The notes beneath the pieces were generated by a model. The model searched no databases, had not been told where the DNA came from, and worked only from the letters and a program-made list of their open reading frames with translations. The translations under genes and the position numbers were made by a program. From Cystobasidiomycetes sp. EMM_F5 (taxonomy: Eukaryota): a DNA stretch of 64,000 nucleotides. Shown piece after piece: positions 28,101 through 64,000 of the stretch. Numbering within the stretch: the stretch's first letter is position 1; each line of letters opens with the position of its first letter. The stretch covers positions 1 through 64,000 of the forward strand of contig JBPGPT010000025.1 of NCBI GenBank assembly GCA_051047955.1. The letters are read 5' to 3'.

Positions 28101-29920
28101 ATGGCAAGACTCCATTCCGTGTACTGCATCTTGCTCTCGCTCGCCTACGCGGGTATCAGCTCGGCGCAGAATGCAACCACCCAATGCCGGTGGGCAGGCC
28201 AGTACGACACTTCCAGCATCCTCCAAGACTACACTTCCTTTGAGATTGACTATCTCGGCTGGGAGGGAAAGTTTGTCGCAAGAGATCTTGGAATCAACCC
28301 AGTCACGACTCTGACCTACGAAGGAACGGGCTTGGATCTATATAAAGGTCCAGCAAATCTGAGTGCACTGCACCGCAATTCAGCAGCAACTGAAGAGGTA
28401 TGCGTGTAATGCCTCACGCAGAGTTTCCGCCTTGCCGTTGCTGAGTACACTGTCAAATCCTAGGCCTTGCAAATAATGCTGTACGCCAAGGCTGTAAACG
28501 GCAGCTCGCAGGCAGCTCTAGTCTTATCACCCAACAACCGTTCCCAAGCGCCCCAGATTGCGATCGATACCATGACTCTGAAGCTCGCGCAGTATCAACG
28601 CTTCAATGCCACCTATCCTGGTTACGCTGGCTTCATCACGCCATACTACCAGGACCCGAACGGTCAACTCAACTCTACCGTCGATTGGTACAACAGGATT
28701 CCTGCAACCGACAACGGGATTAACGTTTGGGCTATTTACGCGTTTGTCGAAGCATTGCAATTGTCGGGACGGAATGCGACTCTGCAAGCAGGTTGGCAGA
28801 CCTACCTGAATGGACTGAAGCGGACCGCTGTAACCGCGTGAGTAGTGGTGCTACCGCTGATATATTCTGATATTGACACCGGTACATAACGTATAGATTC
28901 TATAAAGCGAACAATGCTTCCATTTGCGCCGTGGCTCGCGTGTATGACGCCCAACTGCCCCCAAACCATATCAACCAGACGTACAGATGTGATTCCAGTG
29001 CGACGCTCAATGATCCGTACGAGGGCGAGTTGTTCACGTTTTGGCTGGATCTATTTGGTAATCTGAGCAGCACTGCAAGCGAGGCTCTGTGGTCAGCAAA
29101 GCGCCCTCAGCTTATCAGAACAAACTACACGCTGGCCAACAATGTCACCGGAACGACCATTACCGTACGTAAGGGACGCTATTTTAATGCGCGAGAGGAG
29201 TGGAATTTGCTCGAGCTACCGTATCTCGCCGTCGACCTGGTCAGGTAAGCTCGACTCGGCTCTTTGCTCTGTTACGCTTCTCACAGAGACCCTCTGCACA
29301 GGCGCGTCTTCCTCAATAACCAACGAGCGAGAACTTGCAACTCTGCAGCGTTGGGCATACCTGGCTTCTTTGCCCCTACGTACAACAGCAGCAATTTTAC
29401 AACTGCTCAAGTCACTGGCTACATTAGCAATGCTGGTATACCGAGTATTGCAAATCAGACTGCGCAGGAGTTGGATGTCATTACACCTTATGGCGGCTTC
29501 CCAATCATGCTCTTCAACAAGAGCGTCGGTCATGCATGGCTGCACAACGTTATGCAAGCCAAGCGCATGCAGAGTGAGTCTGAAATGTTTGTGACTTGCT
29601 GTCCACTCTGACGCTATAGGCGCCCAGATCCGTACGGTACATCGGACTCCATTCGCGTCGATGGAACCGGCATGTCGAGCTTTGTCTCGTGGGATGCCAA
29701 GTTTACAACGGTCAATGCCGTCATGGGCGGAGTGAGCGACTTGGTTGCTAGCAAGATGGTCAGAGATGGCGTATACAGTCGTTTTATCACACGTCTCTCC
29801 AACGAGTACAGTCTGGTCTTTGGCAGCGCTCCCCTCTCTGGCGAGAATGTGCCCTTGTGCCTCCCGACTGCGACGATCCCGGATACGTACCTGACAGACT
29901 ATACCGAGTGTCCCATGTAG
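28101..29920 (+). CDS. Secreted GH162-like endo-beta-1,2-glucanase homolog
   Basis: Signal peptide; YPGYAGF, DWYNRIPATDNG, LNDPYEGELF, LELPY, DVITPY, MQ|..PYGTSDS, SWDAKFTT resemble fungal GH162 motifs as recalled; many N-x-S/T sites. Confidence 0.72.
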
Positions 29921-30548
29921 GTCTGTGAATGTATCGGCCTATGTTTCGCGCCGCACTGTGACAGTGAATAATAATAATATGTAACTATCCAATTTCATAC
30001 ACCTAGACAGCAGTAGATTCCGTAAAGTCGTGGAATTCATACAGACAATGCGATGTGATTGGAACACGAGCTTTGACGGAGCTATATGCGTTTGAATTGC
30101 CAATCGCTTCCATTTGCATTCGTTGGGACATGCAATGTCTCAGTTGAAATTGCGGGGCCATTCGGTCGTGACCCGGAAAGATTAAACCACAACACAGCAA
30201 GCACACACCTACGTAATGACCCCATCGCATACAATACATCTCGGAAACAGTTGTTGTATAACATTGTAATGCTCCATTTGGCAACTATCGTAGCATCCTA
30301 GAGTACTATGGTACCTGCCCCGGAAAGTGTACAGCTGTGGCGGAGTCCGGGCGAGTGAATTGTCGACGACGTAGATGCGTTTGAATGGAATTGTATTGGA
30401 TTCTGCAATGTGCACAACAACCTCGCGGTGATGTGCTGACTGAATAAAACTGCACACTGCCAGCCCTTCAAATTCCACTATTCGCTTTTCTGTCCTATTG
30501 TTTTTGTCTGGCAAGAGCAAAAGGGCATTCGGCAGCCGCACTGCTGCG

Positions 30549-32049
30549 ATGGCTTATCGCAGGGTGTCGACCTTTAGCGATGCAGCTCAGGCGGCAGAGT
30601 CGTGGCTGCTGGGCGAGCGGACACCCAGGCCAGAGGATTGGAGTGTTGGGGATGCAAGGGAGGGCGCAGCTTGGGAAAGTCGAAAGGAAACACAGGTTGG
30701 GCGAGTATCAGCAGCAGCACGGTTCTTACATGGGTGTCTGCTACATCCCGCTCTCCAGGGCGCGCACTCGGGTAGCAAGATTCTGGCATCCGTCGTCGCA
30801 GTCTCTTGTGCACTCCTCTTTGGCACGGCTTTCTTCGCACTCAGCCCGTGGCATAGCTCAACGGCGCTCGTCAAGACGTAAGTTGCTACCTTGCTAGTCT
30901 TTCGTCTGTTTGCTGCATGCTGATGTGTATTGGTTTTGCCATCTCAGATTTCTATATCCCCGCCCGGAAGCCAGGGAAGCGATAACAACACTGCTGACGA
31001 GCCACGCCCTTCTCGCACCTTTGGTCACGGCCACAGTCGGACTGCGTGCGCACTCTCCGAACCGCGACTACATCATCATCGTCCCAGAGCAGTACAAGAA
31101 CGAAGACTCGTTTTCAAACACGTCGCTAAAGGTCATTGCAAAGTTGGGATGGAAGATAAAGTACGTACCACACATACCGATACCTGGAGATGTTCCGTGG
31201 CATTACCGAGACACCATGAACAAGTTGCACATCTGGTAAGTAGAGAAAAGTGCAAGAAGCTTCTTTCGAAACATCTCGACTGACCTCTACATTTGCGCTG
31301 CCGGCACCAGGAACATGACAGATTATGCAAGGATAGCCATGCTGGATCTGGACATTCTCATCAAGGGTTCTCTTGACGAGCCTTTCAATATCCTGCGAAA
31401 CAGCAATTATTCATTAGCAGGCGTTCGCGATACAGGATGGGCGATTGGTCGTGGATCAGAAGATATACGGGACCAGATCAATGCAGGAGGTACAGAAGTG
31501 ATGCTCTCCTCGTGCGCGGTCTCCTCGATGCTGAATATTCGCTCATATTGTCGCAGCAATGTGGGCGAGACCCAACCCGCAACTCTTTCGGGATCTGGTC
31601 GAATACTCTCGCAACGACAGCAACTACGATGTCCGCTATCCCGAGCAGGACATGCTGAGTCATTACTTTTGGTTGACGTGGCTCAACCTCAGTGCCGAGT
31701 ATGGCCTGCTGATTACGTACAAGTTGCTGCTCAAGGAGCGTTACGATCAATACTTTTCGAGTGCCAAAGGTGCCGTGGCTTTGCCCTCTCAAGCGCCTCT
31801 TTGTCAAGCCATACTGACTGCGTCTTCTACGCAGTTGTGCACTACGCCGGTACCTTCAAGCCGTGGCACACCTGCAGCGAAAGCTCCTCTCCGCTCGTGT
31901 GCGGTACGCAGATTGACGAGGGTGTCCGGTTGTGGCGCGCTGCCTTTGTCCGGGGTCTCCAAGAGTACAACCTCGACGTTCGAGACGTACTGCAAGGGCG
32001 ATCCCCGGCGGAGGCAGGCTACGACTGGCTCGATACAGTCGAAGCGTAG
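30549..32049 (+). CDS. GT8 (glycogenin-like) glycosyltransferase, type II membrane
   Basis: N-terminal TM ILASVVAVSCALLFGTAFFAL; MNKLHIW|NMTDYARIAMLDLDIL (DxD), INAG, EQDML, VVHYAGTFKPW. Confidence 0.88.
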
Positions 32050-32773
32050 TTTTATCATTTACGAAACATGGTCGAAATACATGGTCGGCATCTCGTTTAC
32101 GCGCATGGGATATACCGCGTAAAGCGGGAACGGGGGAATCAATACCCACATCAACATTAGCAGTCAGTCATTGGAAGGATAGAGTGGGTGTGTGTTGTAA
32201 ATGTTAACTTGGCAGTACGGCTCTACCCGGTGAAAGTAATAAAACCTTATTTCGGTTCCAAGCCTTAGCGACGACTGCAGTGTGTGTTGTGTTGATGCAC
32301 ATTTCGGACAAGTAATGACTGGATAATGCGCACTTTGACTGCTCGGAATAATGATACAATATCGGCACGATAAGGCTGCGTCGACAATGCATTTAAATCT
32401 GACAGCCATGCCAGACTCGCCTCGAAAACCAGCACGAGCATTAGCACAACACCACGCTGCACAGCATCGCAGTCCTGGTACACGGTCATCAACCTCAACC
32501 ACGCTCGCTGCTGGTTGCTGTCCGAGCTGAGCGGTGCCTCGCTCAAGGCTAGCATAGTTTGCCTGCAATCTGCTCCCGCCTCCCTCGCCGCTTTCGGGCA
32601 GCTACGCACTCGAGGCAATAAATAACAAGCTCTTCGAGGTTTATGCAGGCAAACATGCCTCGTGCGAGGTGCTGCTGATGCCCCGTTACTCTTTCTTGCG
32701 CCGCATCGCAGTTGGCTCCCTCCTTCCACACTATCAGTCACCTCCAGGATCGCCGTCCATATCAAAATCGACA

Positions 32774-34707
32774 ATGGGCATCAGACTGCGGTACAGCTCC
32801 GTAGTCATTGCTATTCTGCTATGCACGCTCCTCTTTGGCATGCCCAGGAGTGCCCCTCCCCCGTTGCACGATCAGAGCTGGCAGGTAGGTCTACTGCCCA
32901 GCTCGTCTGGCTTGTTGAGGAGGTACATTGCTGATTGAAGCGTCTGCCCCTCTCTCTTCTCCTGTGGATGTTGTATACATGTACAAATCGCAGTCTGATT
33001 TGGAGAGATCAATACGGACCCGCTCGACGAGCAACGTCACAAGCACCCTCTCGCTCAAGAATGACGGAGCAGACTTTACGCAGTATCTCGTCGAGTGGGA
33101 AAGTGAAGACGGAGCACGCAAAGCAGTAGACATTTGTCACTTTCGGAACTTTTGCTGGCAACCCGCCATCGACAATGACAATGACAGGGTCCGATACTGG
33201 CTCTTGGCCGACGTCGATCGTTCCTCTTTGGAAGAATCGGATTGGGATTTTAGACGCGCAATGCACTCGTGCTTTCAGACGACTTGGCAGCCATACGCTC
33301 GTTATGGACTCTTATCGCTCGCACATCATTCTGGACCCGTTCACTGGATCAAGGGCAACACCTTTGGATTCAAGAAAGAGGAGCCGGGGTAGGCAGAGCA
33401 TATCCGAATATTGATTGAATCCAGACAGGCTAATTCATATACGTCCCTTGTACGACATCTGCCCTCTAGAACTCATCCTGCTGCTTGGGGCCGCATCTGG
33501 TCGACATTCATGTCGGCCGTCATCCGTGGTGCAGAAGCGCTCGAGCAAAGTGGCATCACAGCGGACGCCTTCTTCAATCACTACCAGGTAAGGCGATCGA
33601 GCACGAAAAGGCTTCGAGAGAGTTTACGCAGACGGGTTGATACTCATTCAATGACTTTTTACTCGTAGCTATTTGAGCAAAACATGCCATTGAACGGCTG
33701 GACACAATTCATCATGCAAGCTTCGACGACGGCAGCGCGGCACAGCTTGCCCGGAGGGCGCTACGGCTCAGCCTTTCACCCGGAAGCTACCGTCACCCCA
33801 AGCAGTATTCATCGCCAGCATGCTGCACAATTTGCAACATGGGGCCAGGACGAAGATTTACATCTAACGGATAGTATGGTGTGCTTTGAAAATATGATTA
33901 CAACCAATACCACCCAACGAGATTACTATCAGAGCAAGATGGATGCGGCGTACTTCTCCAAGCTGGTAAGCTCACACGCGTTTGTGACAACGCTGTTTGT
34001 GGGGTTTGTACCTTTGACTCATCTGTCTACACGCACACAGGCGGTTGCATCGCTTGGACTGGAAGTAGACAAGCGTCGACCTTGCAATCCGCGGTTCCTC
34101 ACCATTGTTTATCTGGCTCGAGACCGACCAGTCTGGAATGAAATGGAGGTGCTACAGGCTCTGACGATACCAGGAATGGCCCCTCCTGTCATTGCAACGA
34201 TCGACGAGAATGTGCCCTACGATCACCAGGTCAAATTGTTCCATTCTGCCGACATTATCGTCTCTGTCCACGGCTCTCAGCTGCAGAATCAGCAATTCAT
34301 GCGTCCAGGATCCGTCATTATCGAACTCTTTCCCCGTTTGTATCATCACGATGAACAGAACCGTCTGGCAGCGTGGAACGACCTTGACTTGGTGCAACTC
34401 AACGGTACAAAGTTCCCGCCTAGAGCCCTTGTAGCGCTGGACGGACCAGATTACCTCACAACGTTAGACGAAGCCGAAGATTTTGCGACCAAATTCAACA
34501 TTGATCAGTGCATGAATGTCCTGCATTGCTAGTACGTAGAGTTGCGACATCAAGTCACACACTTCCCGTCTTTTGGCTGATGTTTTCCATATGATCACCA
34601 GTGAAACGGCGCGCTGGCTTGGAGTCTATGTCGACATTCCCGTTTTCAAGAAGGCGGTAGACAATGCCTTGAAACGTCTTACCAATACTCCTAATTGTGA
34701 ACCCTGA
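32774..34707 (+). CDS. GT61 (DUF563) glycosyltransferase, type II membrane
   Basis: N-terminal TM SSVVIAILLCTLLFGM; CHFRNFCW; HPAAW; QVKLFHSADIIVSVHGSQLQNQQFMRPGSVIIELFP. Confidence 0.82.
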
Positions 34708-35585: not shown

Positions 35586-37400
35586 ATGCCCCACGTCGGT
35601 CGAATTGGCCTCCACGATATTCGCATGGCCGTGCCGTCGAGTGCGACCCAGTCCGCCGGGAGGGCCATCAGCTTGCGCAGTCTGCTGGCAATCATGATTG
35701 TACTCGCGACTCTGCTGGTACTGCTCTCAAACTACTCGGCTGGTGTGGCTGCTGGCGACATGGACGCCGCAACAGATATGGCAAGTTATGCTAGGCTAGG
35801 AAAACTCATTAATACCTACATCCCATATCTTGGGAATAGCGGGGACGGCGATCCGGATGCGACAGAGACCTCGGTCATCCAGCAGACCGAGTTGTGTCCC
35901 AACTGCAACTGCTCCGTCCGGGGCGCCTTTACGGAGACACCAGTTTTCAGCGAAGCAGTTCCTTCACTGCGCAATGCCCGCACTCTGTCCCGCACGTCCT
36001 CTCGTCTCGTCAAGCGCTACCTGCTCCACCACATCCAGCTCTACTCTTGGTCTCACCCTATACACATCAGCGACGCAGTCACAGCAAAACTCCTCCAGTC
36101 TTGGTTTAGCTGCCCCGATACCCTATTAGCCTTCAATTTCAGCAACCTCATACTCAATAAGCCAACTGCGTACCCTTACACCAGAACAGGCTCGGGCGGA
36201 CGACTGACCGCCAACATCAGAAGGCTCAGGTATCTCAAGCGACATGCCGAGACGATACAAAAATTTCAGGAGCTAGTCAAAATCGAAGGCTACTACGATG
36301 GAACGCACTATTCGGAGAGGCAGCTCGTCTGGATCATCGTCGAAGACGGTGTGCGCATCGACCCGAGCATCAAAGAATTGCTCGATGCGTCCGGTCTAGG
36401 TGAGTGAAGCTTGCGGAGTGGAGCCTGGCAACTCGCTCACGCTTGTCCCTGCGCTTTGTCAGCGTATCTGTATATCGCTCACGGTGTGCTTCACTAAACA
36501 GGTTGCAACTGAGGACCGCTGAAACCCCTGATTTGTTTCTCCCATAAACAGGCCCGACACATCGATATGGCAATGCACAATGGCAGATTGCAGAGCGCGC
36601 TGTGCACGTCTTGCGCGATGCCTTCTTCGCGTACGCTGCCCTACGTAGCTCGTCTACAATCGAAGAGCCACTGACTCATGGCTCGCCTTTCGCACTAGGG
36701 ACGGTCCAGTGCTCAACATCGACGACGATAGTCGCATCTTGCCCGAACTCCTAAGTAGGGTGTGGAAAGTGCAAAAGGCAATCTTTTGGCAGGTGATTGG
36801 CAGTTACTGGTCGAGAATCGGATGTTTCGTTTCAAGCGATTGAGTCGTTTATTGTTTGACAGGTTGGAAACATGGGACGAAGCGGGCACCTGCACGAAGG
36901 ACCAATCTTTCGGCAGTCGAAAGTAGTCAACTGGATTATCGGCGGTATGCCACATAGGAAGTTTCCTGTGGACATGAATGGCTTTGCATACAATTCGTCT
37001 GCCATCGGTGACGGCCGAGCGGTCCATCCCCCTAAATACGTACCGCGAGATGATTTCGGCGGCGAGTCGTGAGTCAGATTGGCACAGACTTGGAGCATGG
37101 TGGAAGTTAGAGTCTGACGCATCGCGCACGGCTAGGGAATTCCTCGAGCAAATTTTAAAGTCTCGAGCAGAGGTGGAAGCTCTTTGCGAAGATTCGGCTA
37201 TCGAACCATGCCACCTCGCCTGGCACAAGTGTGTCTCGTCATCTAAGCCTTGACGGCAACAACCGAGCTGACTTTTCGTTCACGTCCTCTCTAGCTGGGT
37301 TGAGCACGAACAACCGAAGCGCGCGCAGCTAATGCCTATTGCGGCTCGCAACCGAAGACACAGCGCGCTTGCTGCTGAGTTGGGCCTAGGAGCGGCTTGA
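35586..37400 (+). CDS. GT43-like glycosyltransferase (glucuronosyl/xylosyltransferase family), type II membrane
   Basis: TM LLAIMIVLATLLVLL; PTAY...R...L; LVWIIVEDG; GNAQ; LNIDDDS (DxD); EGPIF; RKFPVDMNGFAYN; GGES|EFL; LAWH. Confidence 0.8.
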
Positions 37401-37688: not shown

Positions 37689-39485
37689 ATGGCACGCGAT
37701 ATCGACCTCGCAGACCTGTTTGAGGATGACGGGATGGACGAGAAGGCAATGTAAGGCGGGCGAAAGAGGTGCTGCGTAGCGGCTGAAAAACAACATACTG
37801 AACTCTGGATGACTACTGCAAATAAGGGCTAGAGTCGCCAGCCGGTTTGATCCAAAGGACTACGACGACCTCAGCAACCCCAGTATCATGCAGACTTTTT
37901 ACCGCAGACTGTTTCCCGCAAAGCAGCTGTACCTTTGGCTGAACCAGGATCAAGGTGACTAGCGTGTATTGCAGCGCGAAAACGGATGGGGACATGGCCT
38001 GACATGGAGCGGCTACTGACACAGTGCCCACGTCTCAATGGACGCATAGAGAAATTGCATTCACCTTGGCGAATGATGCATATCTAGTGAGTGAATCTAG
38101 TCTTGCGAAAGACAAACGCGTTTCTAACAATCTGCGTCTGCTGTTGATGTCTCCTAGCGATACAACTCCTTCGCTTCACACGTAGACTTTCACAAGGAGG
38201 TTATTCGATTAAATCCAGCGCGTTTCGAAATAGGAGCGGTATACAATGCGCGACCAAAGGACAAGCGTCTGCAACTCAAACAAGCACTCAAGCCCGTACA
38301 ACGCGAACTCGTCTTTGATATAGATATGACAGACTATGACGAAATCCGAACTTGCTGCCAAGGCAAAGGCATCTGCACCCGGTGTTGGAAAGTTATCGCT
38401 TGTGCGGTCAAGGTTTTGAATACAGCGCTGACAGGTGAATGTCCTGGTCGTTGACGTCAATAGTCTCATCTGACTCCAGCGCGTGTCTAGTGGACTTTGG
38501 TTTCAAGCACCTCATGTGGGTGTATTCTGGACGAAGAGGTATCCATTGCTGGATATCGGACACAGCCGCTCTCAATCTTACCGATGAGCAACGTAAAGGA
38601 ATTGTAGGCTATTTAGAAGTCATCAAAGGCGGAGCGTCTCAGCAGAAGAAGGTAGATCTTGTTCGACCATTACATCCTTCCTTGGATCGCTGCGTCGAGA
38701 CTCTCCTACTGCCATTCAACAGCGTCATCCTGATCGATCAGGACTGCTTTCGCTCAGTGACAGGTTGGCAGACTCTGCTCGCTCTCTTGCCGACAAATGA
38801 GCCTGCTCTGGCAAAGTGGTCGGATACCCTAACAAACGAGTGGCGGAATGGGCCAGAATTATCGAGTAGAGAACGATGGCAGATGCTTGCGGATGTGGGC
38901 AGGGAGTTGGTGGAGGGAACAAGCGGCTTAAAGGTCAGCTCCCCCATCATTAAGTGAAAAACCCTCTTCGCGTGCAACTAACAAACTAGACACCTACTTG
39001 CTCAATGCAGTATACTATTGCGAAAGAACGATACACTGCCGCCATCAGTGATATCAAGCTTCAATATCTGTACCCACGTATCGACGCCGAAGTTTCAAAG
39101 CACCAAAACCATCTGCTCAAGTCGCCATTTGTCATTCATCCTGGTACCGGACGGGTTTGCGTACCCGTCGATCCGGAGAGAGTAGACGACTTCGATCCAG
39201 AGGCAGTTCCGACGGTTGGCTTGCTACTCAGAGAGCTTGACAAGGCGGCCGCTCGTCAAGTAAAATCCGAAGATGGCACTGTTCGCGAAACGACCTGGGA
39301 GCATACCAGTCTTAAACCGTATGTCGACATGTTTGAACAGCACATAAATAGTATTCTGCAAGACAGCACGAGAGCTAAACGAGGTGAGAGGCATACATAT
39401 CCAATAAGTGACCGACGACGAAACAAAATTTGACTTGTGTTGATTTGATTTGATAGCGGTGAAAGCAGAGTCTCTGGAATACTAG
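37689..39485 (+). CDS. PRI1: DNA primase small (catalytic) subunit
   Basis: FYRRLFP, REIAFTL, RFEIGAVY, ELVFDIDMTDYD, WVYSGRRGIHCWISD, YPRIDAEVSK..NHLLKSPFVIHPGTGRVCVP. Confidence 0.97.
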
Positions 39486-49952: not shown

Positions 49953-50749
49953 CCCCTTCCGACCAACCGATCGAATATCGTTCTGCTGCTCCCGAATATG
50001 CGCAATGCTATTTTGACGTTTTTCGGCTGCATCGCCCCACACGCGCCTCGAACGGGCCGACCAAGCCGGCGTTCCTCAACCGCCCTGCCACGAGAAGGAC
50101 GCGGAAGCAGACATAGCAGAGCGCCGACAGTCCACCACACTCAAAGCAGCTGCACAAGAAATGCCGCGATAACGCTTGCGCGTTTTGCTTCGCATGGTCT
50201 CGGCTTCACACGCCTACCGTCGCTTCTGTTGGTAATTGCTAGTGTAGATCTATCAATGTCAAGCAGGCCTACCTACACTTGACAGCTATGTGCCAGCAAT
50301 ATAATTGCTGGCTGTTCGTACAGCTCAGTATTCCTGTCGATGTCTTGACTGCCGGAGCGCTGGACTACAGGCTTTCTCTCCGACTCTAATATACCTTGAC
50401 TGTGTTCGCTGATGCCAGGGCTACCATTCACGCAACGGACTGCCAGATCATATGCTGACGCATTGAGCAACCGCTTCGTGGAGAATTGAAGTCGCTCCTG
50501 CTGCTCGCAGTAACGGACGCCAAATTGGAGACCTCACGGCAGCTTTGGCGTCGAGGCTGGACGCATAGGTAAGTTTGGATTAGAGACGCGACGTGTGCGA
50601 TTTGTCTATGCCCATTCAGATAGAAAAATCTTCGCCACTGCACCAAGGTGGTATGTAACGCCAATTCGGTCTCAACCTTCGCATATGCTCCGTTTGCATT
50701 TCCGCTAGATGCCGAGCAAAAACAGGTGCACGCGGGACACATGCGCAAG

Positions 50750-52847
50750 TCAGTGACATGCAATGCACTTGGAGGGTGCAGCAGTATACGCACGAGGATC
50801 CTCAGCGTCTCTGGGATAGTAATCCCTACATCTCGAGGTAAAGTCTGTTGTCGTCATGTATCCTCGATCTCCTGCCCGATACCTATCGACTACATCCAAC
50901 ATGGTATCCAGTTCACCAATAGAGGTGAAATGCTGGCGTGCGTATGCATACATAAAGGACGCCTTTCGCTGCAACTCTACCGGATCGGCTAAAGCATCAG
51001 ACAGCACGCGATTAATTTGCTGGAAGATGACGATCAGAACGAGCTTTTGGGCTGCTCTCTCATGCGCACATACCTCTATAGACCACAACGGGTCCAGTTC
51101 GATTGTATTATTCCGTAAAATACGTTCGTGCTCTGTGGGCAATTCTCCGGCTATAACGCAACTAATGACCCTTATAAGCGAAACTCTGAATCCGCCAACT
51201 AGAACATACTCACCCTGTAAGCGCTGCTTGTGCGTACTTGCGCACGGCCTTCATTTGTACAGAGCCATCGAAGACGCAAATCTTGGTTTCTCGCATACTT
51301 TTTGCGAAAGTCACATCGTTTGAATGCATAAAATCGAATGGCGGAGTATCTATCCTATCTGGAGCCCCAGCTGGAAGCTGCACAACCTCTTCGTACGTCA
51401 ATGCTGGCAAGGGATTTGTACTTCGAAATGGCTCGATGAAGGTTTGACCATCCTCGATAGCATCTGCGATCATCATCCTACGAGGTCGAATGAGTCAGTC
51501 TTCAGCTCGATCCAGAATCACAAATTTGCCCACCTCAAAGGATAATACGCGTCAGCCTTGCCAAAGAGTCGAACGTCGACAGTCTTATCGTTCCATTTTT
51601 GCTTTTTCCAATCTTCAGTCGCCACACAAATTGACATCGCTCAAGGTACTCACCGGTGGGTAGTAGTTGGTAGTGTGAGCCGAGTCTGGTACGTGAGCGT
51701 ATAGTTGGAAGGGATAATTGGATACATCGCCGTATTTGTGATGCCGTAACGCAACCAATTTCTCGTACGCGAAAACCTCCGTTAACTCGAAACCGTACCT
51801 AGCAGAAGAAAACCGCACACATTTGCAATGTGATTGCTTTACGTGTGCCTGTGCTCACCGGACAATAGTCACGTTTCCAAGATACGGAAAGTGCTCGTCG
51901 GGACATTGTCCGATATTGCAATCTCCAGTCTTGACGACAAAGACCGTGTCGCATTGAAACGATCTCTGATCCGTCACATCCCACCATTCGACAGTGCCGT
52001 CTGGACTGCCGAAAATGCCACTCCTCTCGTAGGATGTAAAGACGATGTCAAAGAATCCGCAACCGTACTTTTCCTCGATATTGTCGGTGAAGTGTTTCTG
52101 TGAGCTGAACCCGCTGTAGTCTGTTCAAGCACCATAGATCAGCAATGGCAGGGCGGGGCAGGCTATATATACCCTTACGAGGTCCCCACATGTGCGCCTC
52201 TACATTTGGGTGCTCCATTGCTGCCTCTAGCAAGCGCAGAGGAAAAGGAAGATGAGACGTGTCAAGCAAGGCCGTCTCTGTCGGACTGACTGTATACATC
52301 AATGAGGAATGGGTCTGATGTTTGTACCGCCTCTGAGGAGATAGGATTATAGCCATGGCTGGCTTAGCGCAGTAGTGTGACACTATGTGTCAGCTCGACG
52401 CTCACTCTTGTAATCGTGCAGGAAAAGCACCCGAATTGGCTTTGGTCGGTCCTTTACTGGATACTCGAAAGGGCTGTTCAATTCGAGAAACGGCTGCTCA
52501 AACCAGGGTCGACTGGCTAGAGTGGATGGAACGACAGCAGGACAGTCCGGAAAGGCTACCCCCGTCGATTTTGTCGAGACTGAAAAGCATCCCAGGACTG
52601 CCCCGATGATAAGCGTCAACAGGATTCGGGCAACCTGGCCAATCTTGCGGTGGTGAGATTTGAGGGAAGCCAGGCCAGCTCCGGTTGATCTGACGGCGTC
52701 CTCCTCTGCGCGCCTGTGCAACGTCGTCCTTCTTTGAGTGAGACCACGCCCGACTTCGCTCTCATTGTACGTGTTTGCATCAGAGGACCGGCGTCGCAGT
52801 CCGGCTGAAGGGAACTGCCCGCCGTTGACCTGGAGGGACCCAGGCAT
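50750..52847 (-). CDS. Uncharacterized glycosyltransferase-like type II membrane protein, paralog 2
   Basis: TM ILLTLIIGAVLGCF; VLFLHD, MWGP, KYGCGFFD, HVPDSA, YYPLR, MRETKICVFDGS, RKYAQAALTG, LPTEHE, DPVELQRKA, YRAGDRGY. Confidence 0.72.
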
Positions 52848-53008: not shown

Positions 53009-55225
53009 ATGCTGTCGCTCATCGACGAGCGCAAATCTCGCTCAAAGCCAGCCAGCCGGCATGCCGCAGCCAACCGGTCGTGGAGAGCCCGCCTGGCAGC
53101 TCTGGCGGGGGTCGTTGGGGCAGCGTATCTCTTCCGCGACGTCTGGAGCTACGCTTCCCTCCAGTCGTCGGTAGCCCACTCGTCTGCCCTGCCCGCGACA
53201 CCGTGGTACAAGAACGAGTCCCTCTTCTCCGACCCGTTCAAGTACACCCCCAAGGACTACGCCAAGCCGGTTCGAATTCTCTTTCTCGCAGACCTCGAAG
53301 GTGAGCGAGCCTGCATTCTCTGTAGGGTCCGAGTACGAATGCCGACGTATCCCTCCTGGCCGAATAAACCCCAGACTCCATTGTCCGGCACGACACATTC
53401 TACTACGAAGTCTATGGTGAGCTTTTTGCCATCAGAACGTCGAGTTACGTTGACTCTTACACCACCCACTTCACACAGAGGCTGCACGACGGCATCCAGG
53501 AGTCTTGCCGGAGTTCTGGGGACCGGGTATGTGGAGCCGTTTCACTCGTCTCTTCATTCAACGAAAAGCAAGCTCAATCTCCTTTACCCTTTCTGCAACA
53601 GGCTACGGAGGCTACGACATCACTCGTGATTGGAACGAAAACATAGCCCGCAAATATGGATGCGGCTACTTTGACATCCTGTACACTCACTACGGTCTCA
53701 ACAAGATTTGGGACGAGGATGCGAGGACGCCCAGCCTCGACTGCGACACCCTACTCATAGTAAAGGGTGGAGACTGTGGAGGAGGCGTGCAACAATGCGT
53801 CCGCGATTCTTATCTCCATCACGGTAACATCACCATTGCCAGGTAGACTAGACATTCTCCATGGTATACGTCGACTCAGCTTACCATCAACCCGCCAGAT
53901 ACGCTCACGAGCTCTTCGAGATGTACACGTATCCAAACATACTGAGCATCAGAGAGAGCAAATACAATAATCGCCAAGACATGCAGTATCACTTGTTTGG
54001 TCACATTCCAGATACCGCAAACGAGTGGGACTTTTATCCCGTGGTAATACTCAAGCTTCATACCATACTAGCGAATATTGTCGACTGATGAGCACGTTCA
54101 CCTCAGGCTGACTTTGAAGAGAAAAGCGTAGACGCCATGCTCTTCGGGGCAAGTCATGGTTATTACCCGCTCAGGTAAGTTGTGCGGGTACATCACTCAA
54201 TGAGCGTGATTGACTCGTGGCCCGTAGGACAACTGTCGCTCTTGCTATAGGGGCTGGCAAAACCTTCATTGAGCCTCAACCACCTGCAAGTGCGTCAAGC
54301 GCATCTTATCGGCAACGCTTTTGGCTAATGACGCATCGTGTAGCACACATTGATGAGACTCTGCCAATGTACGATCAGGTTCGAGCGCATCCTCCGAACA
54401 CATTGCAATGGGATGACAGTATACATGACGTCCAAGTGAGTCGTGATGAATGCGTAAAAGGTTATGCTTACCGCTAAAACCAACTTTCAGCGGGATATCA
54501 TGAAGAGTTTTGCAGGAGCGATGCGCAACACTAAGATATGCGTCTTTGATGGTTCCATCGAGCACAAGGCGGTGCGCAAATTCGCACAAGCGATGCTTTC
54601 TGGGTGCGTCCGCGCCCCTCTGCCAGTGTTTCGTGCGATTCGAGCAGTCTGACAATCCGTCTCAGTTGTGTCATTGCCAGCGATCTGCCGACCGAGCACG
54701 ATTGGATCCTGAAAGATAATATTATAGAGCTTGATCTGTACGCTACTATCGAGGTAAATAAGCTGTTCATGTGCACGATGCTCGTCACTTCGCTGAAACA
54801 AATATAGGATATCAATCGAGCAATATCGACAGCCCTACAAGATCCAGTTGAGCTGCAGCGGAAAGCAGCCACCTTACTCCAGTACGCGCGGCAGCATCTG
54901 ACCGGCACCAGGGAGATTGACCTCGTGATCGAGATGGCGCGGAGGTAGGTTATATTTTGGAATGGTCGATAGAAATCCGCTCATGCAGCCGATGCAATCA
55001 TAGATATCGGCAAGGAGAGCGAGGTTATACATTTCCAACGAGCTTCACTTCTCGCTGTCGGCATTACAATGACTGGGACCCTGAAGGGCCTACGCCGCCA
55101 TGGTAAGTACCTCTGGCATACAGTATATAGCCATACTTATTCACGTCATTCATAAATACAGGTGTACCGGCCAGCACTTCCAATTACAGCAAGGATGGAA
55201 CAGGCAGCCGCCACAAAGAGGCTGA
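53009..55225 (+). CDS. Uncharacterized glycosyltransferase-like type II membrane protein, paralog 3
   Basis: TM LAALAGVVGAAYLF; ILFLAD, FWGPG, KYGCGYFDI, KGGDC, HIPDTA, GYYPLR, MRNTKICVFDGS, RKFAQAMLSG, LPTEHD, DPVELQRKA, YRQGERGY. Confidence 0.72.
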
Positions 55226-56256: not shown

Positions 56257-57845
56257 ATGCCAACAACTGCAATATTGGGTGGGGGACTATCTGGTCTGTC
56301 CCTTGCGTACTATCTGGCTCGAGCATGTCCGCAAGACAAGATCATTCTGCTTGAGAAGGGCTCGCGTCTTGGTGGTTGGATACAAACCGTCAAGGCCGGT
56401 GAAGACATCCACTTTGAGTCGGGACCGCGAAGCATCCGGCCAGTAGGATTAGCTGGACTGTTGACACTAGATCTGGTGAACAATCTTCCTTACACATCCT
56501 GATCAAACTGATTGCACCTGCAGATCGACCAACTTGGTTTAACACCCAAATTGAGAACCGTATCGAAATCGCATCCTTCTGCAAAGAATCGTTACATATA
56601 CTTCAATCAAAAGCTGCACCGAGCCCCAAATTCGTTGGTATCCGCAGTTCGGGCGTCTTTTGATGCTCAATCGCCGTTTCATGGCTTTCTGGGGTCCGTC
56701 TTGACGGAGCCATTCAAGAGCAAGTCAGATCTCGTCGACGAATCTGTCCATGCGTTCGTTTCGCGTCGATTTGGTTCAGCCTTTGCAGAAAATGTCATGT
56801 CTGCACTAGTGCATGGCATTTACGCAGGCGACACGAGACAATTATCAATGGGTGCAGTATTTCCGACGCTGAAGGAGATGGAGCGACGACGAGGCAGCAT
56901 CGTTGCTGCAATGTTGACTGGAGGAGCTAAAATCTCTGTCGCCGACGCTGAAGCGAAACGCGCCCTCACAACGCGACTAGCTGATGTCGAACGACAGATG
57001 CGCAATGTCAGCGTATATTCGTTACAAGGCGGCCTTCAAACGCTGCCCGACAGCCTTGAGGCTGCACTCGTCAATCAAAATAACGTAGAGCTTCGGCAAG
57101 ATAGTGCAGTCACGCGAGTATCTATGCAAGCAGGTACCAAAAAGGTCTTGGTGTGTACAGGAACACGCTCTGACAGTTTGCAGCAACCTGATTTACCTCA
57201 CAGCTAAAATGTTCGGGTGAAAATCTCCCCGTGGACCGTTTCATGTCTGCGGTATCATGCAAAGCTCTCCATCAAATCCTGCCATCATACACAGAACTGG
57301 GTCAAACCCCATTTGTAACCGTCGGAGTCGTCAATTTGGCTTTTGCTGCACCATACGAAATGCCGTTACGTGGCTTCGGATACCTTATCCCTCGGTCTGT
57401 TCCGCTCGAGCAAAACCCGCATAAAGCCCTTGGTGTCATTTTTGATTCAGACATGTTCGACGAGAAGGATCCTACCAGAATCACGGTGATGCTGGGCGGG
57501 CACTATTGGTCGAATGGCAATGCTCCACAGAAGGAGCAATTGTTGCAGAACGCTCTGGACACTCTACGGCTACACGGCATTGTCTCCACAAATCAAAAGC
57601 CTGTTGCTTCCCATGTCAACATCCACCACGACTGCATTCCTCAGTATGCCATCGGTCATCCTGACCGCATGTTTAGGATACATCGACGATTATTGCTCGA
57701 CTTTGGCGGTAATGTGGGAGCTGTCGGGTCCAGCTATACTGGCGTGGGGGTCAACGATTGCATAAAAGCTAGCTGGACTGCAGCGCGGCTTCTAGCGAAA
57801 GGAGCGAGTTGCACTGGCTTGGAGGCCTACGCCGGCGAGGAATAG
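56257..57845 (+). CDS. HEM14: Protoporphyrinogen oxidase
   Basis: AILGGGLSGLSLAYYL, RLGGWIQT, FESGPRSIR, DESVHAFVSRRFG, HGIYAGD, GFGYLIP, LGVIFDS, CIPQY, GVGVNDCI. Confidence 0.95.
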
Positions 57846-57918
57846 CTGCAAACGCTAGAAATTTGCCTGCCGGCTGTTGTGAGAATCGCATACTCTCGGA
57901 ATTACCTGTATCGTAGAG

Positions 57919-59400
57919 TTAAAATTCGACAGACCAGGACAATGTGGTCTGTGTGCGCTTTTTCACGTGATGCACAGCTGTGAAACTTTCCCGCGCTGTT
58001 TGGCCAACCAACCTTGACGACGTCTCAAGTTGAGACACTTCGACCGGAATGCGTGCAACTTGGCGGAAATTGTGATTTCCTCGAAGACTTGGGAAGCGGG
58101 TGCCTTGTGCCCTTGCGTGCGCGCTCGCATAAAATGCTAGATCAATTGGCATGTGTTTGGGGAGCAAGGCGGACAGCCCCAGATGACCATCCATCCGCTA
58201 TTTAACTGTGATACCGTTCCAAGCGCCAGAAGCGAAGGCCAGACCATTGTACGCAAAACTTGAAACGACTTCAGAAAGTCGATCTTGAATGATGGAGTCG
58301 ACGGGGATTTGCTGCGCTTGTTGCGGCTCCACGGCATACATCTTGAGTTCGCCGGCCCTGGGCATATTCCATGTGATTGTGAGATCGACTGGATTCCGCA
58401 TATTGTCGGCGGTAGATTGCAGAATGATAGGAATTATTCGTGCGTTCAGAATATACGCAAAGGTTCTGCACAATACAGTCAGACAACATTCATAGAGAGA
58501 TTAATCTTTACTTACCCCCAAGTCGACCTCATCCGCCGAGTGATTTGACCTCTTTCCGGCGTTTCGTCGGTCCAATATTCACCTGCATCGTGGCCAAGCA
58601 TAATGATATCCCAGTCATCTGGAACTTGTCGCCAGACTTCATCCATGACTGGGCCAATACTGTAATTCAACTGTACAGAAACAATGACATCGCGTTTTAG
58701 TAGGGAAGTTCCGGCTGCATTCCTCAGACTTACGTCAAGATCATCTTCCATTACAAGAACACGTTCGTGTTTCTGACGAAGTACTTCTTGCCAACTGTAA
58801 CATCAGAGGAGATTAGCGTTGCCAACGAGTAGCAGTATTGCCACTTCACATCGATCGATGGCCAATCAGACAGGCAAGAGCATAACGGAACCGAAGTCTG
58901 TACATTCGCTTGCTTAGGTGCCTCGAAGGTGGCTCGTTGACTCCTTCTGCCTGCGCTTCAGACCCGATCTCCCGCCGCTTGAGAATGGTGTCGTCAAAGT
59001 CTCCCTTGTCAGGGAAGACGTGAAGGAATGTCTCGTTGAAGGACTTCGACCATACACTCGGCCCCCAAATGGCAGTAAAATCGATTCCAGCATAGTCGAG
59101 CATAGTCGACATTTCAGCCAAGCGGACTTGGCTGGCAGTCAGGATGTACGTATGTGATACGCCGAGAGTCGTCTTGGTCTTGCCGTACGGGCGTGCTGCT
59201 AACCAGGACAGAGGGACGTTGGATATGTATGGCGATGCTCCATCAGTGATCAGAAGGATGAGACCTAAACATAGCCAAACGTTTCAGTACAAGTTGCCGC
59301 GGCCATATTGGCCAGCAAACTTATGCTGGGCCGACCTACCACATATGCAGGAGACACAAGCCAACGATTTGGCCCAGTGTGAAAATCTGCGTTCAATCAT
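57919..59400 (-). CDS. GT25-like glycosyltransferase
   Basis: MLDYAGIDF, ALACLIGHRSM|WQEVL...VLVMEDDLDV, VPDDWDIIMLGH, LCRTFAYILN, PVDL; hydrophobic segment near the N terminus. Both ends approximate. Confidence 0.72.
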
Positions 59401-60030: not shown

Positions 60031-62372
60031 ATGTCCGACAAGCTCACCCGTATCGCCATTGTCGACAGCGACAGATGCAAGCCGAAAAAGTCAGCGCAAA
60101 ATATCAAATATGCGGCCTGGATTGGGCGGCTGACAATGGCCATGCTGGCGTCCACAGATGCAGACAGGAGTGCAAAAAGTCATGTCCAGTCGTCAGAGGG
60201 GTGCGCCGGGAGATTGCTGACTCTTGGAGTGCAAGTCCTGATGCAGTATTAACAGGGCAAGCTGTGCATAGAAGTCTCGCCAACAGACAAGGTGAGTTCA
60301 GAGTATATCTCAATGCGGACGGCTAGACTGGGCGCCGCTGACTCGCCTTGTTCCCGCGCAGATTGCAACAATTTCCGAAGTCCTGTGCATTGGATGTGGT
60401 ATCTGCCCGAAAAAGTAGGTAGCGCTGCCTTGGTGCTGTAGGACGTCGGACGTCGGAGTATGAATAAAGGGTCTGATATACTCGTCTTCCGTTTACAGGT
60501 GCCCCTTTGAAGCTATCCAAATCATCAATCTGCCGACAAATTTGGCTACCGAAGTCACGCACAGATACTCTGCCAACTCTGTAAGCCGCGATGAGAAGAG
60601 ATCACACGATATGTTCGAAAAGGAAAACCGTCGTCTGACTCTGCCTTTAAACTAGTTCAAGCTGCATAGACTTCCTATGCCGCGGCCTGGTCAAGTGTTA
60701 GGCCTGGTCGGCACAAACGGTATTGGCAAATCGACAGCCTTGAAGATCCTCGCAGGCACCCTCAAGCCAAACCTCGGCCGCTTTGATGCGCCGCCGGATT
60801 GGCAAGAACTGCTCAAACATTTTCGCGGCAGCGAGTTGCAAAACTACTTTACAAAGGTACTCGAAGACGATCTCAAGGCTCTCATCAAGCCGCAGTACGT
60901 CGACCATCTGCCAAGAGCCATCAAAGGCAACAAGACGGTCAGGCAGATGCTCGAGGGCAAGATGCAGGTTGAATCGCTGGATCGTATAATCTACCTGCTC
61001 GATCTGCAAGAAGTCATGGACCGCGAGCCAAGTCAGCTATCTGGTGGAGAGTTGCAGAGATTTGCTATTGCCATGACCTGCGTCCAAAAGGCGGATGTGT
61101 GGGTTTGAAACACGAGTATGGGGCAGAATACGTATTGACTCTTCTCCCTTTATCCCGCAGCTACATGTTTGACGAGCCCTCCTCCTATCTCGACGTCAAG
61201 CAGCGTCTCAATGCCGCACTCGCTATTCGCGAATTGGCAACTGACAAAGCTTACGTTATTGCCGTCGAGCACGATCTTGCAGTCTTGGATTACCTTTCCG
61301 ACTTCGTCTGCTGCATGTACGGCAAGCCAGGAGCATACGGCGTAGTCACTTTCCCCGCCGGTGTTCGAGAAGGCATCAACAATTTCCTCGATGGTCATAT
61401 TCCAAGCGAAAATCTCCGATTCCGCCAAGAGGCACTCAGCTTCAAGATGGCAGAGACGGCCGATGAGTTTGTCATTGAGCATACAAAAGCCTTCCAGTAC
61501 CCAGCTATGGAGAAGACGCTAGGCAGCTTCCACCTGTCAGTGGAAGCAGGCTCCTTTGCCGATTCGGAGATTCTAGTCTTGGTCGGCGAGAATGGAACGT
61601 GAGTGGTTCTATGCGCTGTGCGAGCGAATGCGCCTGTTGACGACATGTTGTGTCCGACACAGTGGAAAATCGACCTTTGTAAAGATGCTAGCTGGCAAGA
61701 TGGCAGCTGACAATGGACAAGAACTGCCACAGTTGTCCGTCTCGCTGAAGCCGCAAATGATTGCACCCAAGTTTCCAGACTCTGTTCGTATGCTCCTAAT
61801 CAAAAAGATTAAAGCAGCATTTATGGATCCGCAATTCAACTCGGATGTTATCAAGCCGATGCAGATAGAGGAGCTGCTTGATCAACAAGTCCAGACTCTT
61901 TCAGGCGGTGAGTTGCAGCGTGTGGCTATCGTACTTGCCCTCGGTCAACCAGCGGATGTATACCTCCTCGACGAGCCGTCGTCGTACCTCGATGTTGAGC
62001 AGCGTATCAATGCAGGAAAAGTCATCAAGCGGTAGGTTGTGCGCAATGTCACGAGGCGAGTTTCAAGCTGAGTAGATTATGCGTTACAGATTCATTATGC
62101 ATTCCCGAAAGTCTGCCCTTATCATCGAGCACGACTTTCTTCTCGCAACCTATCTTGCAGACAGGGTTGTCGTGTTTGGCGGTAAACCAGCAGTCGATGC
62201 CCATGCTAGCGCGCCACAGACTCTGTTGAGCGGGATGAATAGCTTCCTCAAGAGCCTAGAAGTCACCTTTCGTCGTGATCCAACCAACTACCGGCCACGG
62301 GTCAACAAGCGCGACTCGGTCAAGGATAGAGAGCAGAAGGCCGAAGGCAGGTACTTCTTCCTCGAGGATTGA
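60031..62372 (+). CDS. RLI1: ABCE1/Rli1 Fe-S ABC ATPase (ribosome recycling)
   Basis: [51 protein letters not shown] twice, [21 protein letters not shown]. Confidence 0.98.
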
Positions 62373-62941
62373 GATTGAAAATCAAGCGCAGTGGCTTGTT
62401 GCACTGGCCGCTCAGCGCCGCCGTGGAGATGGCAAACGCAACCTCAATGCCTGCATTGCGTGTATGCCGCGAAGCACTGCATGTGCTCGGTCGTGTGGCA
62501 CCGACTCTAGCTCAAGCTCCTGCTGCATACGCTGCGCGCACACATGGATTGGGATATTTCGTGCAGGTACGCGTGCAGGCATGCATGCTCTGAACCAGCT
62601 GCGTTGGCTGTCTGCAACTCGGCAGCGAGTCAAGTGGAAGTGACACTACGACTGGCGGGCTGCGGTCAGAGTCATTACTGGGATGTCTTGCATACTGCCA
62701 TCGGATGCATATCTTCCAGAGTGGATTGGATTACCGCGGGCGCTACCTGCTGCGTTACCAATGGTGCAGAGTAGGCTTACTGTGTGACGCAGCCTTGTCT
62801 CGGTCGTCTATTGTAAAATGTTGTAATTCAATAACAATTTCGACTGTTTGAACTCTCATCTTTACCTCTTGCAAACCAACAATCAGAGTATCCAGGCCAT
62901 TCGATGCGGCCAGCCAGCAGCTGCGAGTGACTGTTGTCCGC

Positions 62942-64000
62942 ATGTCGTCTATCCGAAGGAGATCAACCCAGGGCATCCTGCGCGACCTGCCCGCCAGCAA
63001 CCGAGACGGTAACAACGATAGCAATGGCTTCCTCAGAGTGCCCGGCGACAAGCCAAGGGCGACTACGCAGCGGCCAGTCACTCGTCCACGGCGACGCTTC
63101 CACAGCGACAACGACCAGTCATGGCTGGGCCAGTCGATGCAAAAGCTCAGCAGTATCTTTGGACGGCGGAGGATCAGTCAGCGCGGATGGGCAAAGCTCC
63201 TCTTCTACCTCTTCGTCCTCGTCGCTGCCGTCTGGCTCATCGTCACCCTCGTCGCAGACCCCCCAGACCCCTTCCCCAGCACACTGCCCAATTCAGCAGA
63301 GGCAGTCAAAGAGGCTATCGGTCCGGAGCGCTGGCTGAAGAATCTATCGAAAAGTGCACCGTCTCCCTGCGAGTCTCCTTCATATCGCTTACTTGGACTT
63401 GTCCTTCTCCAGAAGCAAGGGCCAGGCATGCCCAAGTCTTGCAGAGCAAGAAGAGACTGGCAGACATCTACAAATCGATGAATGTATGCGGACCAAACGA
63501 CGTCTTGAGCAAGATTTACGGCAACAGCGCATTGACTAGCACTCGTGCGCACATTGGGTCATCTACTCGGATCCAACGCGTTATCCAAAAAGCTTTTAGC
63601 GGACAACCGCTGTGTAAGCGGATGGAAGTCATGGTGCTTGTGCAGTCATGTAGGCTGACAGTGTTCATGTGTTTGACCCGCCGACTCTCGCAGCCATTGC
63701 GTTCCTGGGCGGCTCAATCTCTGCGTGCCACGGCTTACACGGCGAGGCGGCACATCCTTTGGGCAATCCACTGTCTCCGCAAGGTTTTCCACACCGGATA
63801 TACAGCTGGCTTACGCAAACTTTTCCAAATGAAGACCATACGGTGACCAACGGGGCAGGTGTGTCGTCGAATTTGCCTCTTACTGTGTGTATTTTCGTGT
63901 AGCTGACAGTGTGCTACGCCAATGATGCCAGAACTCAAAACGGATACCACATACTTTGCCTACTGCTCTCATATGCATTTGCCCGACCATGTGGACCTCG
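62942..64000 (+). CDS. CAP64/CAS3-like SGNH-fold protein 2, partial (continues past window end)
   Basis: TM LLFYLFVLVAAVWLIVTLV; KIYGNSALTSTRAHIGSSTRIQRVIQKA; AFLGGSISACHG; HTVTNGA|..TDTTYFAYC..HLPDHVDL. Confidence 0.82.

Follow-up and report, generated by a model that had tools for sequence, protein, structure and literature searches.

Does the gathering of glycan-related genes on contig JBPGPT010000025.1 of Cystobasidiomycetes sp. EMM_F5 constitute a unit that builds one surface or secreted glycan, or do genes of separate pathways merely lie side by side in this basidiomycete yeast? The genes for the wall and capsule polysaccharides of fungi are mostly scattered, the galactosaminogalactan (GAG) cluster being the main exception, and because of this scattering pathways such as that of the Cryptococcus capsule have been slow to solve. 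The stretch analysed here, referred to as the window, comprises the 64,000 nucleotides from position 1 to 64,000 of the forward strand of that contig (GenBank assembly GCA_051047955.1), and its positions 28101-64000 may hold one of the rare fungal gene clusters for a surface or secreted polysaccharide. We find that this region is a real glycan gene island of at least 36 kb, which extends beyond the end of the window and contains at least five unrelated glycosyltransferase (GT) families. The reading that we prefer, with a probability of about one half, is that of a lineage-specific glycan island in which type II GTs, together with accessory proteins, work on a single glycoconjugate that is exposed at the surface or secreted and is probably mannose-based. 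The organism itself is a phyllosphere isolate, for which an assembly of 18.6 Mb with 6,580 predicted genes has been announced (PMC12697161).

Genes were modelled with a home-made, self-trained and splice-aware finder that chains exons; the models are approximate and not RNA-based. All 253 stop-to-stop open reading frames (ORFs) of at least 70 amino acids (aa) between 27.7 and 64 kb were in addition scanned with Pfam at the level of exons. Models and scan together yielded 16 genes in 28101-64000, 12 of which are glycan-related, the same count as that of the original prediction. The genes are given below with the evidence for each, P0001 being the 1215-aa protein of the public annotation (EMMF5_004750), P0019 a full-length relative of the GT-B genes and P0039 a protein of Melampsora americana.

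28101-29920, plus strand: GH162-like protein, secreted (527-aa model, signal-like segment at the N-terminus; exon compared with PDB 6imu/6imw)
30549-32049, plus strand: GT8, type II (PF01501 on ORF 31240-32046; hydrophobic segment 78-96; DLD motif)
32774-34707, plus strand: GT61 (PF04577; putative 5' anchor exon in ORF 32558-32935; model start 32979)
35586-37072, plus strand: GT43, type II (PF03360 on 36860-37069; DDD motif; hydrophobic segment 28-46; uncertain 3' end)
37689-39433, plus strand: small subunit of DNA primase, a non-glycan housekeeping gene (PF01896 in three exons, E 3e-8 to 6e-18)
40418-41017, minus strand: single-exon ORF of 199 aa, outside the island assignment (gene model; no Pfam family above noise)
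41427-42880, minus strand: GT32-type, type II (PF04488; hydrophobic segment 52-70; DLDVD motif)
43139-45333, plus strand: CAP64-like 1, 638-aa model (type II anchor; GGS and TNGA motifs in an SGNH-like domain; beta-sandwich at the C-terminus; homologues)
45648-47238, minus strand: secreted homologue of AA14 lytic polysaccharide monooxygenases (PF22810 on three ORFs; signal-like segment, then His)
47843-49952, plus strand: GT-B paralogue A (GTB_A), 547-aa model (tblastn, queries P0019 and the C-terminal half of P0001; anchor 80-98)
50625-52847, minus strand: GT-B paralogue B (GTB_B) (C-terminal half of P0001 aligned end to end, 39-52% identity; anchor 72-90)
53009-55103, plus strand: GT-B paralogue C (GTB_C) (residues 80-491 of P0039 aligned, 44-71% identity per segment)
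56257-57845, plus strand: flavin amine-oxidase-type oxidoreductase, non-glycan (PF01593 and PF13450 on three ORFs)
58198-59283, minus strand: GT25-like, a weak call, with the N-terminus outside the model (ESM Atlas features of two ORF pieces)
60075-62372, plus strand: RLI1/ABCE1, a non-glycan housekeeping gene (Fer4_RLI and two ABC_tran matches)
62942-64000, plus strand: CAP64-like 2, cut at the end of the window (match to P0001)

At least 8 of the 12 glycan genes encode transferases, and the Pfam scores of the GT8, GT61, GT43, GT32 and AA14 genes all lie above the gathering cut-offs at the level of single exons. Sub-threshold matches to RNHCP, BES1_N, DUF7948, DUF7747, TNT, Toxin_35 and EIAV_Rev were set aside as noise, probably from non-coding frames. 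GC content is even throughout the window (0.50-0.54) and long ORFs are fragmented as is typical of an intron-rich fungus; the even composition and the intron-bearing genes imply that the stretch is native. The first 28 kb had been described as free of type II GTs, and no GT was detected among the 44 ORFs scanned there, out of 118 of at least 85 aa.

The four classical GT genes are each placed by their domain matches. The GT8 gene reaches 28.7 bits with PF01501 against a cut-off of 24.3 (E 1.3e-6, profile positions 96-134 of 253), and its ORF gave only noise against PDB sequences. The GT61 gene matches PF04577 over profile positions 18-137 of 137 (46.5 bits against 27, E 5.6e-12), and its nearest solved relative is POMGNT2, an N-acetylglucosamine (GlcNAc) transferase (E 5.5e-7). 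Upstream of its model, ORF 32558-32935 opens with a short basic segment, after which comes a hydrophobic stretch; the gene probably begins near 32774, the model being short of its first exon. In the GT43 gene, whose model contains the DDD motif, a 70-aa ORF matches PF03360 with 33.9 bits against 27 (E 3.5e-8), and a 69-aa exon shows weak PDB matches to solved beta-1,3-glucuronyltransferases (E 0.002-0.05). The GT32 gene scores 40.3 bits against 23 with PF04488 (E 5.2e-10) and weakly matches the Och1 structure 9n3s (E 0.013); its placement in GT32, as against GT139, the GT32-like family of Cgm1 described in PMC12493134, is provisional.

The fifth family is that of three paralogues which the original prediction had left unnamed and labelled as GT-like. 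Residues ~640-1215 of P0001 are homologous to GTB_A, GTB_B and GTB_C, and its first half is CAP64-like. As the second half starts with a basic tail and a hydrophobic segment of its own, the public model EMMF5_004750 is most likely a merger of two adjacent genes, namely CAP64-like 2 and a fourth paralogue (GTB_D) situated just past the end of the window. A word-indexed search for this family gave five matches, four of them fragments of one gene; we therefore used instead an exhaustive HMMER search with P0019, which recovered 346 representative clusters at E <=1e-3. The named members that were looked up belong to Melampsora, Phaffia, Kwoniella, a Tremellales species and four chytrid-grade fungi, the remainder being unnamed marine or metagenomic sequences. 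PF13524, a domain of the GT1/GT4 clan, is matched by 33 of the 52 aligned members, and the AlphaFold model of P0019 (mean pLDDT 86) finds its best structural matches in MshA, PimB' and PimA (E 4e-9 and below). The GT-like label is thereby borne out for the family, whose fold is GT-B and GT4-like, rather than on the window copies themselves, the exons of which have no Pfam match of their own and are joined to the family by tblastn (E 1e-19 to 1e-59).

In a quick maximum-likelihood tree of this family GTB_C groups with two proteins of Melampsora americana, one of which, P0039, is its orthologue, and paralogues A, B and D form a separate clade, both with an SH-aLRT support of 99. Given this split and the fact that no DNA-level repeats were found in 28-64 kb, the duplications are old, and the old duplicates are still neighbours, with GTB_B and GTB_C standing head to head. 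The Kwoniella members of the family are 704-738 aa long, and for one of them the UniRef name is 'Glycosyl transferase CAP10 domain-containing protein', a hint that it may be fused with a domain of the GT90 type.

Most of the encoded proteins were originally described as having a short N-terminal tail and one transmembrane helix, that is, the type II topology. A 19-residue hydrophobicity scan of 11 GT or CAP64-like models or fragments agrees with this, in that a single N-proximal hydrophobic segment is present in nine of them (GT8, GT43, GT32, both CAP64-like proteins, GTB_A, GTB_B, GTB_D and the GT25-like fragment); the anchor of GT61 lies in the upstream ORF, and GTB_C shows no hydrophobic segment at the threshold used.

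An exact RRRS stands near the N-terminus of the genes at 43139, 47843, 52847 (minus strand) and 62942, and again in P0001 near residue 647, so that five tails from two unrelated families share it; GT8 has RRVS. As a general feature of the CAP64-like family it was rejected, R[RK]x[ST] being found within the first 30 residues in 1 of the 15 CAP64-like homologues listed, many of which begin with a basic RR. It may serve locally as a signal for sorting or phosphorylation, or be due to chance.

How far this assemblage departs from chance was estimated under random gene order, with windows of 16 genes in a genome of 6,580 and with paralogues counted once. GTs constitute ~1.0-1.2% of the proteins in Cyphobasidium (61 of 6,095) and Cystobasidium minutum (69 of 5,942), the totals of 61 and 69 being our hand sums from Table S8/S9 of PMC8355462. 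When the GT-B family is counted with the four Pfam-verified GT families, 0.003-0.02 windows of such content are expected per genome, and when the GT25-like gene is counted too the expectation falls to 5e-5 to 5e-4. Nine distinct glycan-related families within 16 genes are expected 1.5e-5 to 5e-4 times per genome, assuming that 4-6% of all genes are glycan-related. On this estimate the enrichment appears real, but how strong it is hinges on the less classical members.

The layout of the genes has some features of a unit. There are two runs of glycan genes without an interloper, one of four genes on a single strand (28.1-37.1 kb) and one of six genes (41.4-55.1 kb). Three divergent pairs share their intergenic regions, namely GT32 and CAP64-like 1 (258 bp), AA14 and GTB_A (604 bp) and GTB_B and GTB_C (161 bp). 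Moreover, the two duplicated families keep close company: CAP64-like 1 is one gene away from GTB_A, and CAP64-like 2 directly adjoins GTB_D, close enough for the public annotation to fuse both into one protein of 1215 aa.

With its combination of unrelated GT families and modifying or processing enzymes, the island looks biosynthetic rather than catabolic. Beside GT8, GT61, GT43, GT32 and the GT4-like GT-B family with its four copies, the GT25-like gene is a probable sixth GT family. We propose that the type II transferases would add different sugars, within the secretory pathway, to one surface or secreted heteroglycan or glycoconjugate, which is probably mannose-based. The GT43 protein is a candidate for the addition of glucuronic acid, and the CAP64-like proteins might bind or modify a mannan-type chain, handling or sensing its O-acetyl groups. 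The GH162 and AA14 proteins may trim or remodel the product outside the cell, like the hydrolases embedded in other polysaccharide loci. Part of the island would go back to old duplications, in place, of the CAP64-like and GT-B genes, the remainder being a co-location of unrelated families.

Several observations weigh against a common product of these genes. The four Pfam-verified GT families alone would be expected in 0.1-0.5 windows per genome, which is not significant. The essential housekeeping genes for primase and RLI1, together with the flavin oxidase and the unknown ORF, cut the island into four blocks, and scans of the window detected neither a gene for the synthesis or transport of nucleotide sugars nor a regulator. 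A comparison of promoter k-mers (k=6-8) between nine island promoters and nine control regions produced no convincing common motif, the best 8-mers, out of thousands of k-mers tested, reaching 4 of the 9 island promoters as against 0-1 of the 9 controls. TTGTCGA and its extensions were rejected as an island motif, as they are found within the first 28 kb and in coding regions too.

The linkage of the genes in relatives points the same way. A scan of metagenomes with the CAP64-like profile gave 80 loci with 494 kb of flanking sequence, the flank on one side reaching at least 5 kb in 32 of these loci, and tblastn with all window proteins recovered the other island families in 0 of the 80, the CAP64-like query, as positive control, matching 80 of 80. 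WD40 matches in four of these loci were rejected as synteny, being generic repeat matches produced by the Tup1-like gene that lies in the first 28 kb. In Melampsora americana the orthologues of the CAP64-like gene and of GTB_C are on one 925-kb contig but 53 accession numbers apart. Conserved linkage of the island, the lack of which the original prediction had named as a refutation, was thus found in neither set of relatives. These relatives are distant (30-43% identity), and the result argues against deep conservation, not against conservation within Cystobasidiomycetes.

A further point on this side is the weak call of the GT25-like gene, the weakest member of the island. ESM Atlas features of two non-overlapping ORF pieces point to PF01755 clusters, with values of 0.85 and 0.91, and 29 of the 30 matches of the 0.91 piece fall in the same family set. 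Searches against Pfam (E up to 5, four ORF pieces), NCBIfam and PDB sequences gave no match, and a search for homologues returned 147 candidates, none of which was scored. Such language-model features are a lead, not proof.

These observations suit the main alternative, in which the genes are co-located without a common product, serving different pathways such as those of N-/O-glycans, glycosyl-inositol-phosphoceramides and wall polymers, and brought together by tandem duplication along with chance or regional accumulation of lineage-specific genes. Six of the 12 glycan genes in the window come from two duplicated families, which together with the non-significance of the four verified families, the interspersed housekeeping genes, the want of a common promoter motif and the missing linkage in the 80 loci and in Melampsora americana makes this the strongest rival, though a less likely one than the reading that we prefer. 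Nevertheless, nine unrelated glycan families in 16 genes are far off the random-order expectation, the duplicates are ancient and still adjacent, and three divergent pairs have short common intergenic regions. The GT61 and GH162 genes lie side by side, moreover, though Table S9 of PMC8355462, which covers 18 fungal genomes, has no row for either family, on account of which their joint presence in EMM_F5 is notable; other supplements or MycoCosm may list these families in relatives. GT61 and GH162 may be unusual in EMM_F5 among its relatives. GT43 is confined to Pucciniomycotina in the same table, and GT43, GT64, GT49 and GT62 are present in Pucciniomycotina and hardly at all in Tremellomycetes among these 18 genomes (PMC8355462). 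Of the capsule or exopolysaccharide cluster proposed in the original prediction, the gene content, the type II topology and the biosynthetic mix of functions hold good, and the housekeeping interruptions, the lack of a promoter motif and the lack of conserved linkage tell against it.

If the island is, as we prefer, dedicated to one glycoconjugate, the CAP64-like genes bear on its nature. CAP64-like 2 (62942-63999) matches P0001 in four segments, three with 97-100% identity and one with 88.5%, which fits an origin of the window from EMM_F5 or a nearly identical strain. Homologues from Naematelia, Kwoniella, Cryptococcus amylolentus, Melampsora and Phakopsora that are named 'capsular associated protein' show 33-42% identity over a 298-aa exon. 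Membership in the CAP64/CAS3 family is probable from the homologues of C. amylolentus, Kwoniella and Naematelia (E 1e-50 to 7e-62), C. amylolentus being the Cryptococcus species compared. None of the CAP64-like homologues has a Pfam domain. P0001 matched the PDB chain 6hfz with E 4.7e-12, and a profile of 19 family sequences did so with E 1.8e-25. The entries 6HFZ/6HH9 represent RiCE17, a 2-O-acetyl esterase acting on mannans in which an SGNH domain is followed by a CBM35 (PMC9487903). Consistent with this relationship, the AlphaFold model of the homologue P0002 (of moderate confidence, mean pLDDT 61.5) matches the whole two-domain RiCE17 with a Foldseek E of 5e-21 and a target-normalised TM of 0.60 over 464 aligned columns, the next unrelated fold having an E of 2e-6. 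Thus, both the structure model and the profile place an SGNH fold and a CBM35-like domain in the CAP64-like family.

The catalytic residues are another matter. Of the RiCE17 triad Ser41, Asp190 and His193 (positions counted on the aligned 6hfz chain), the HMMER alignment of the CAP64-like family retains the serine of the GGS motif and the aspartate, but the column of His193 holds Leu, both in the consensus of the family and in the two copies of the window, which adds to the case against the reading that we prefer. The Ser-Asp-His triad is accordingly incomplete and, as the catalytic His is absent, we keep the CAP64-like proteins out of the CE17 enzymes. They share with RiCE17 of Roseburia intestinalis the succession of SGNH domain and CBM35-like beta-sandwich along with the GGS Ser and the Asp, and differ from it in the long N-terminal tail with anchor and the Leu at His193, at an identity of ~18%. 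An invariant His is found in the family six residues downstream of the His193 column and might substitute for His193.

By the structural models, the family may represent a mannan-recognising SGNH module that lacks the complete triad defining an active CE17 esterase, which loosely fits the phenotypes of Cryptococcus mutants: the glucuronoxylomannan (GXM) of cas3 mutants shows only partial O-acetylation, and loss of CAS3 alters both the O-acetylation and the xylose content of GXM (PMC10889740). Cas3 and its relatives are labelled as putative O-acetyltransferases in PMC12493134, and in the part of the literature covered no work tying CAP64 or CAS3 to SGNH was evident. An 'acetylated' product, as once considered possible for this locus, gains indirect support from the fold of an acetyl-mannan esterase and is disfavoured by the replacement of the canonical catalytic His.

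The CAP64-like genes also lie behind the interpretation given in the original prediction, that of a Cryptococcus-like capsule locus for an acidic, xylosylated and O-acetylated polysaccharide of the GXM type. Besides the two CAP64/CAS3-family genes and their likeness to an acetyl-mannan esterase, it can draw on the GT43 gene, whose nearest solved relatives are, by weak matches, glucuronyltransferases, leaving room for an acidic glycan, and on the prediction of GXM-like polymers for the related lichen yeast Cyphobasidium (PMC8355462). However, GT61, GT43, GT25 and GH162 are outside the known Cryptococcus capsule enzymes listed in PMC12493134. Signatures of CAP59/CAP60 (GT69), CAP10/CXT1 (GT90), UGD1 and UXS1 were not found in the 253 ORFs. 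To our knowledge, the walls of Pucciniomycotina yeasts are generally without xylose, which counts against a GXM-like product, and the GT61 protein has as its nearest solved relative an enzyme that adds GlcNAc and not xylose, so that the claim of a 'xylosylated' product is without support. Because the core capsule families are missing from the stretch and GT61 is close to POMGNT2, we consider a GXM-like capsule locus unlikely.

The GH162 and AA14 genes raise the question whether the island serves degradation instead. The GH162-like exon 28464-28835 aligns with residues 85-206 of the 505 of chains 6imu/6imw (E 1.1e-29), which assigns the gene to GH162 by homology to the catalytic domain of TfSGL; the comparison concerns one of five exons, 124 of ~527 residues, and the exon scan gave no Pfam match for this gene. 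The likeness to the GH162 endo-beta-1,2-glucanase of Talaromyces funiculosus (6IMU) thus consists in clear exon homology and in secretion, and, in distinction from that enzyme, the window protein would on our proposal process the glycan of its own cell. The AA14 gene matches PF22810 with 101.8 bits against 27 (best E 6.3e-29, with two further exon matches), and its model has a hydrophobic leader followed by His after a putative cleavage site.

GH162 being a family that degrades beta-1,2-glucan, AA14 one that cleaves polysaccharides oxidatively, and RiCE17 a degradative esterase (PMC9487903), these genes and the esterase-like CAP64 proteins could be taken as a catabolic locus for plant or bacterial polysaccharides on the leaf, with the GTs as bystanders. 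Yet the transferases, as counted above, form the majority of the glycan genes, the CAP64-like proteins have at the N-terminus a membrane anchor of the sort typical of Golgi enzymes and are without the catalytic His of an esterase, and neither sugar transporters nor further hydrolases appeared in the scans of the stretch. Since most of the genes encode anchored transferases, we rank this explanation below even the GXM-like capsule and regard it as the least likely of all, indeed as very improbable.

A biosynthetic island dedicated to one glycoconjugate, the reading that we prefer, can be compared with a few known systems. The GAG system combines a single multi-pass synthase with an epimerase, a deacetylase and two hydrolases, a bacterial-like, synthase-dependent design. 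The island resembles it in bringing transferase, modifying and hydrolysing genes together on the chromosome, and differs in having at least eight single-pass type II GTs of 5-6 families and no synthase, epimerase or deacetylase, in belonging to a basidiomycete yeast and in being known from its genes alone. The five-gene GAG cluster of Aspergillus and Metarhizium, a fungal exopolysaccharide cluster with a transferase and modifying or hydrolysing enzymes (PMC8224951, PMC7229062), is nevertheless the nearest known kind, though of a different building principle. To the seven-member CAP64/CAS3 family of Cryptococcus the island is tied by its two CAP64-like genes with their 'capsular associated protein' homologues, which show 33-41% identity in Cryptococcus, Kwoniella and Naematelia. 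The capsule genes of Cryptococcus are, however, dispersed, and two of their families, GT69 and GT90, were not found in the exon-level scan of the stretch.

Bacterial cps/Wzy-type loci bring many unrelated GTs together at a single locus with a glycanase and an enzyme that handles acetyl groups, and the island shows the same logic of gathering. It differs from them in being eukaryotic, with monocistronic and intron-rich genes, in its housekeeping interruptions and in having no flippase, polymerase or export gene. A bolder form of our proposal, which we put forward as a doubtful one, would see in the region a co-regulated Golgi 'assembly-line' locus of at least 13 genes, including those beyond the window, for one acidic, acetyl-decorated and mannose-based surface polysaccharide. 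The eukaryote-wide GT4-like family and CAP64/CAS3 would then be a functional pair, with the CAP64/CAS3 proteins as mannan-binding modules of the CE17 kind from which the esterase His has been lost. Such a locus, if real, would have no described precedent in a eukaryote as a capsule-locus-like cluster of type II GTs. The view that no cluster of this composition has been described stands, as we found none in the literature searched or in the genome announcement, which makes no mention of glycan genes (PMC12697161); nor did we find literature on the monosaccharide composition of Cystobasidium exopolysaccharides.

If the island is one unit, it would provide a parts list for a basidiomycete surface glycan and, from the side of the genome, a way into what the enigmatic CAP64/CAS3 family, tied by its fold to an acetyl-mannan esterase, does biochemically. 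It would likewise give a first functional context to a GT4-like family found from chytrids to rusts and to fungal GT61, GT43, AA14 and GH162 proteins, and it would bear on the acidic polysaccharides that have been proposed in related cystobasidiomycete yeasts associated with lichens. Should the genes not be co-regulated, the finding shrinks to an unusual, unexplained local enrichment.

The surroundings of the island are of a different nature. The first 28 kb (518-27293) code for a ~2,000-aa protein of the helicase/NFX type that has zinc fingers of the CCCH and RZ kinds, a WD40 corepressor resembling Tup1, a membrane transporter of the auxin-efflux type, Bud13 and a Sec14-like protein, and also contain several ORFs without a Pfam family, including 17891-19966 and 20351-21204. 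Within the island region, the 199-aa ORF at 40418-41017 has a good coding score, a low-complexity N-terminal part rich in acidic and basic residues and one tail-anchor-like hydrophobic segment at 134-152.

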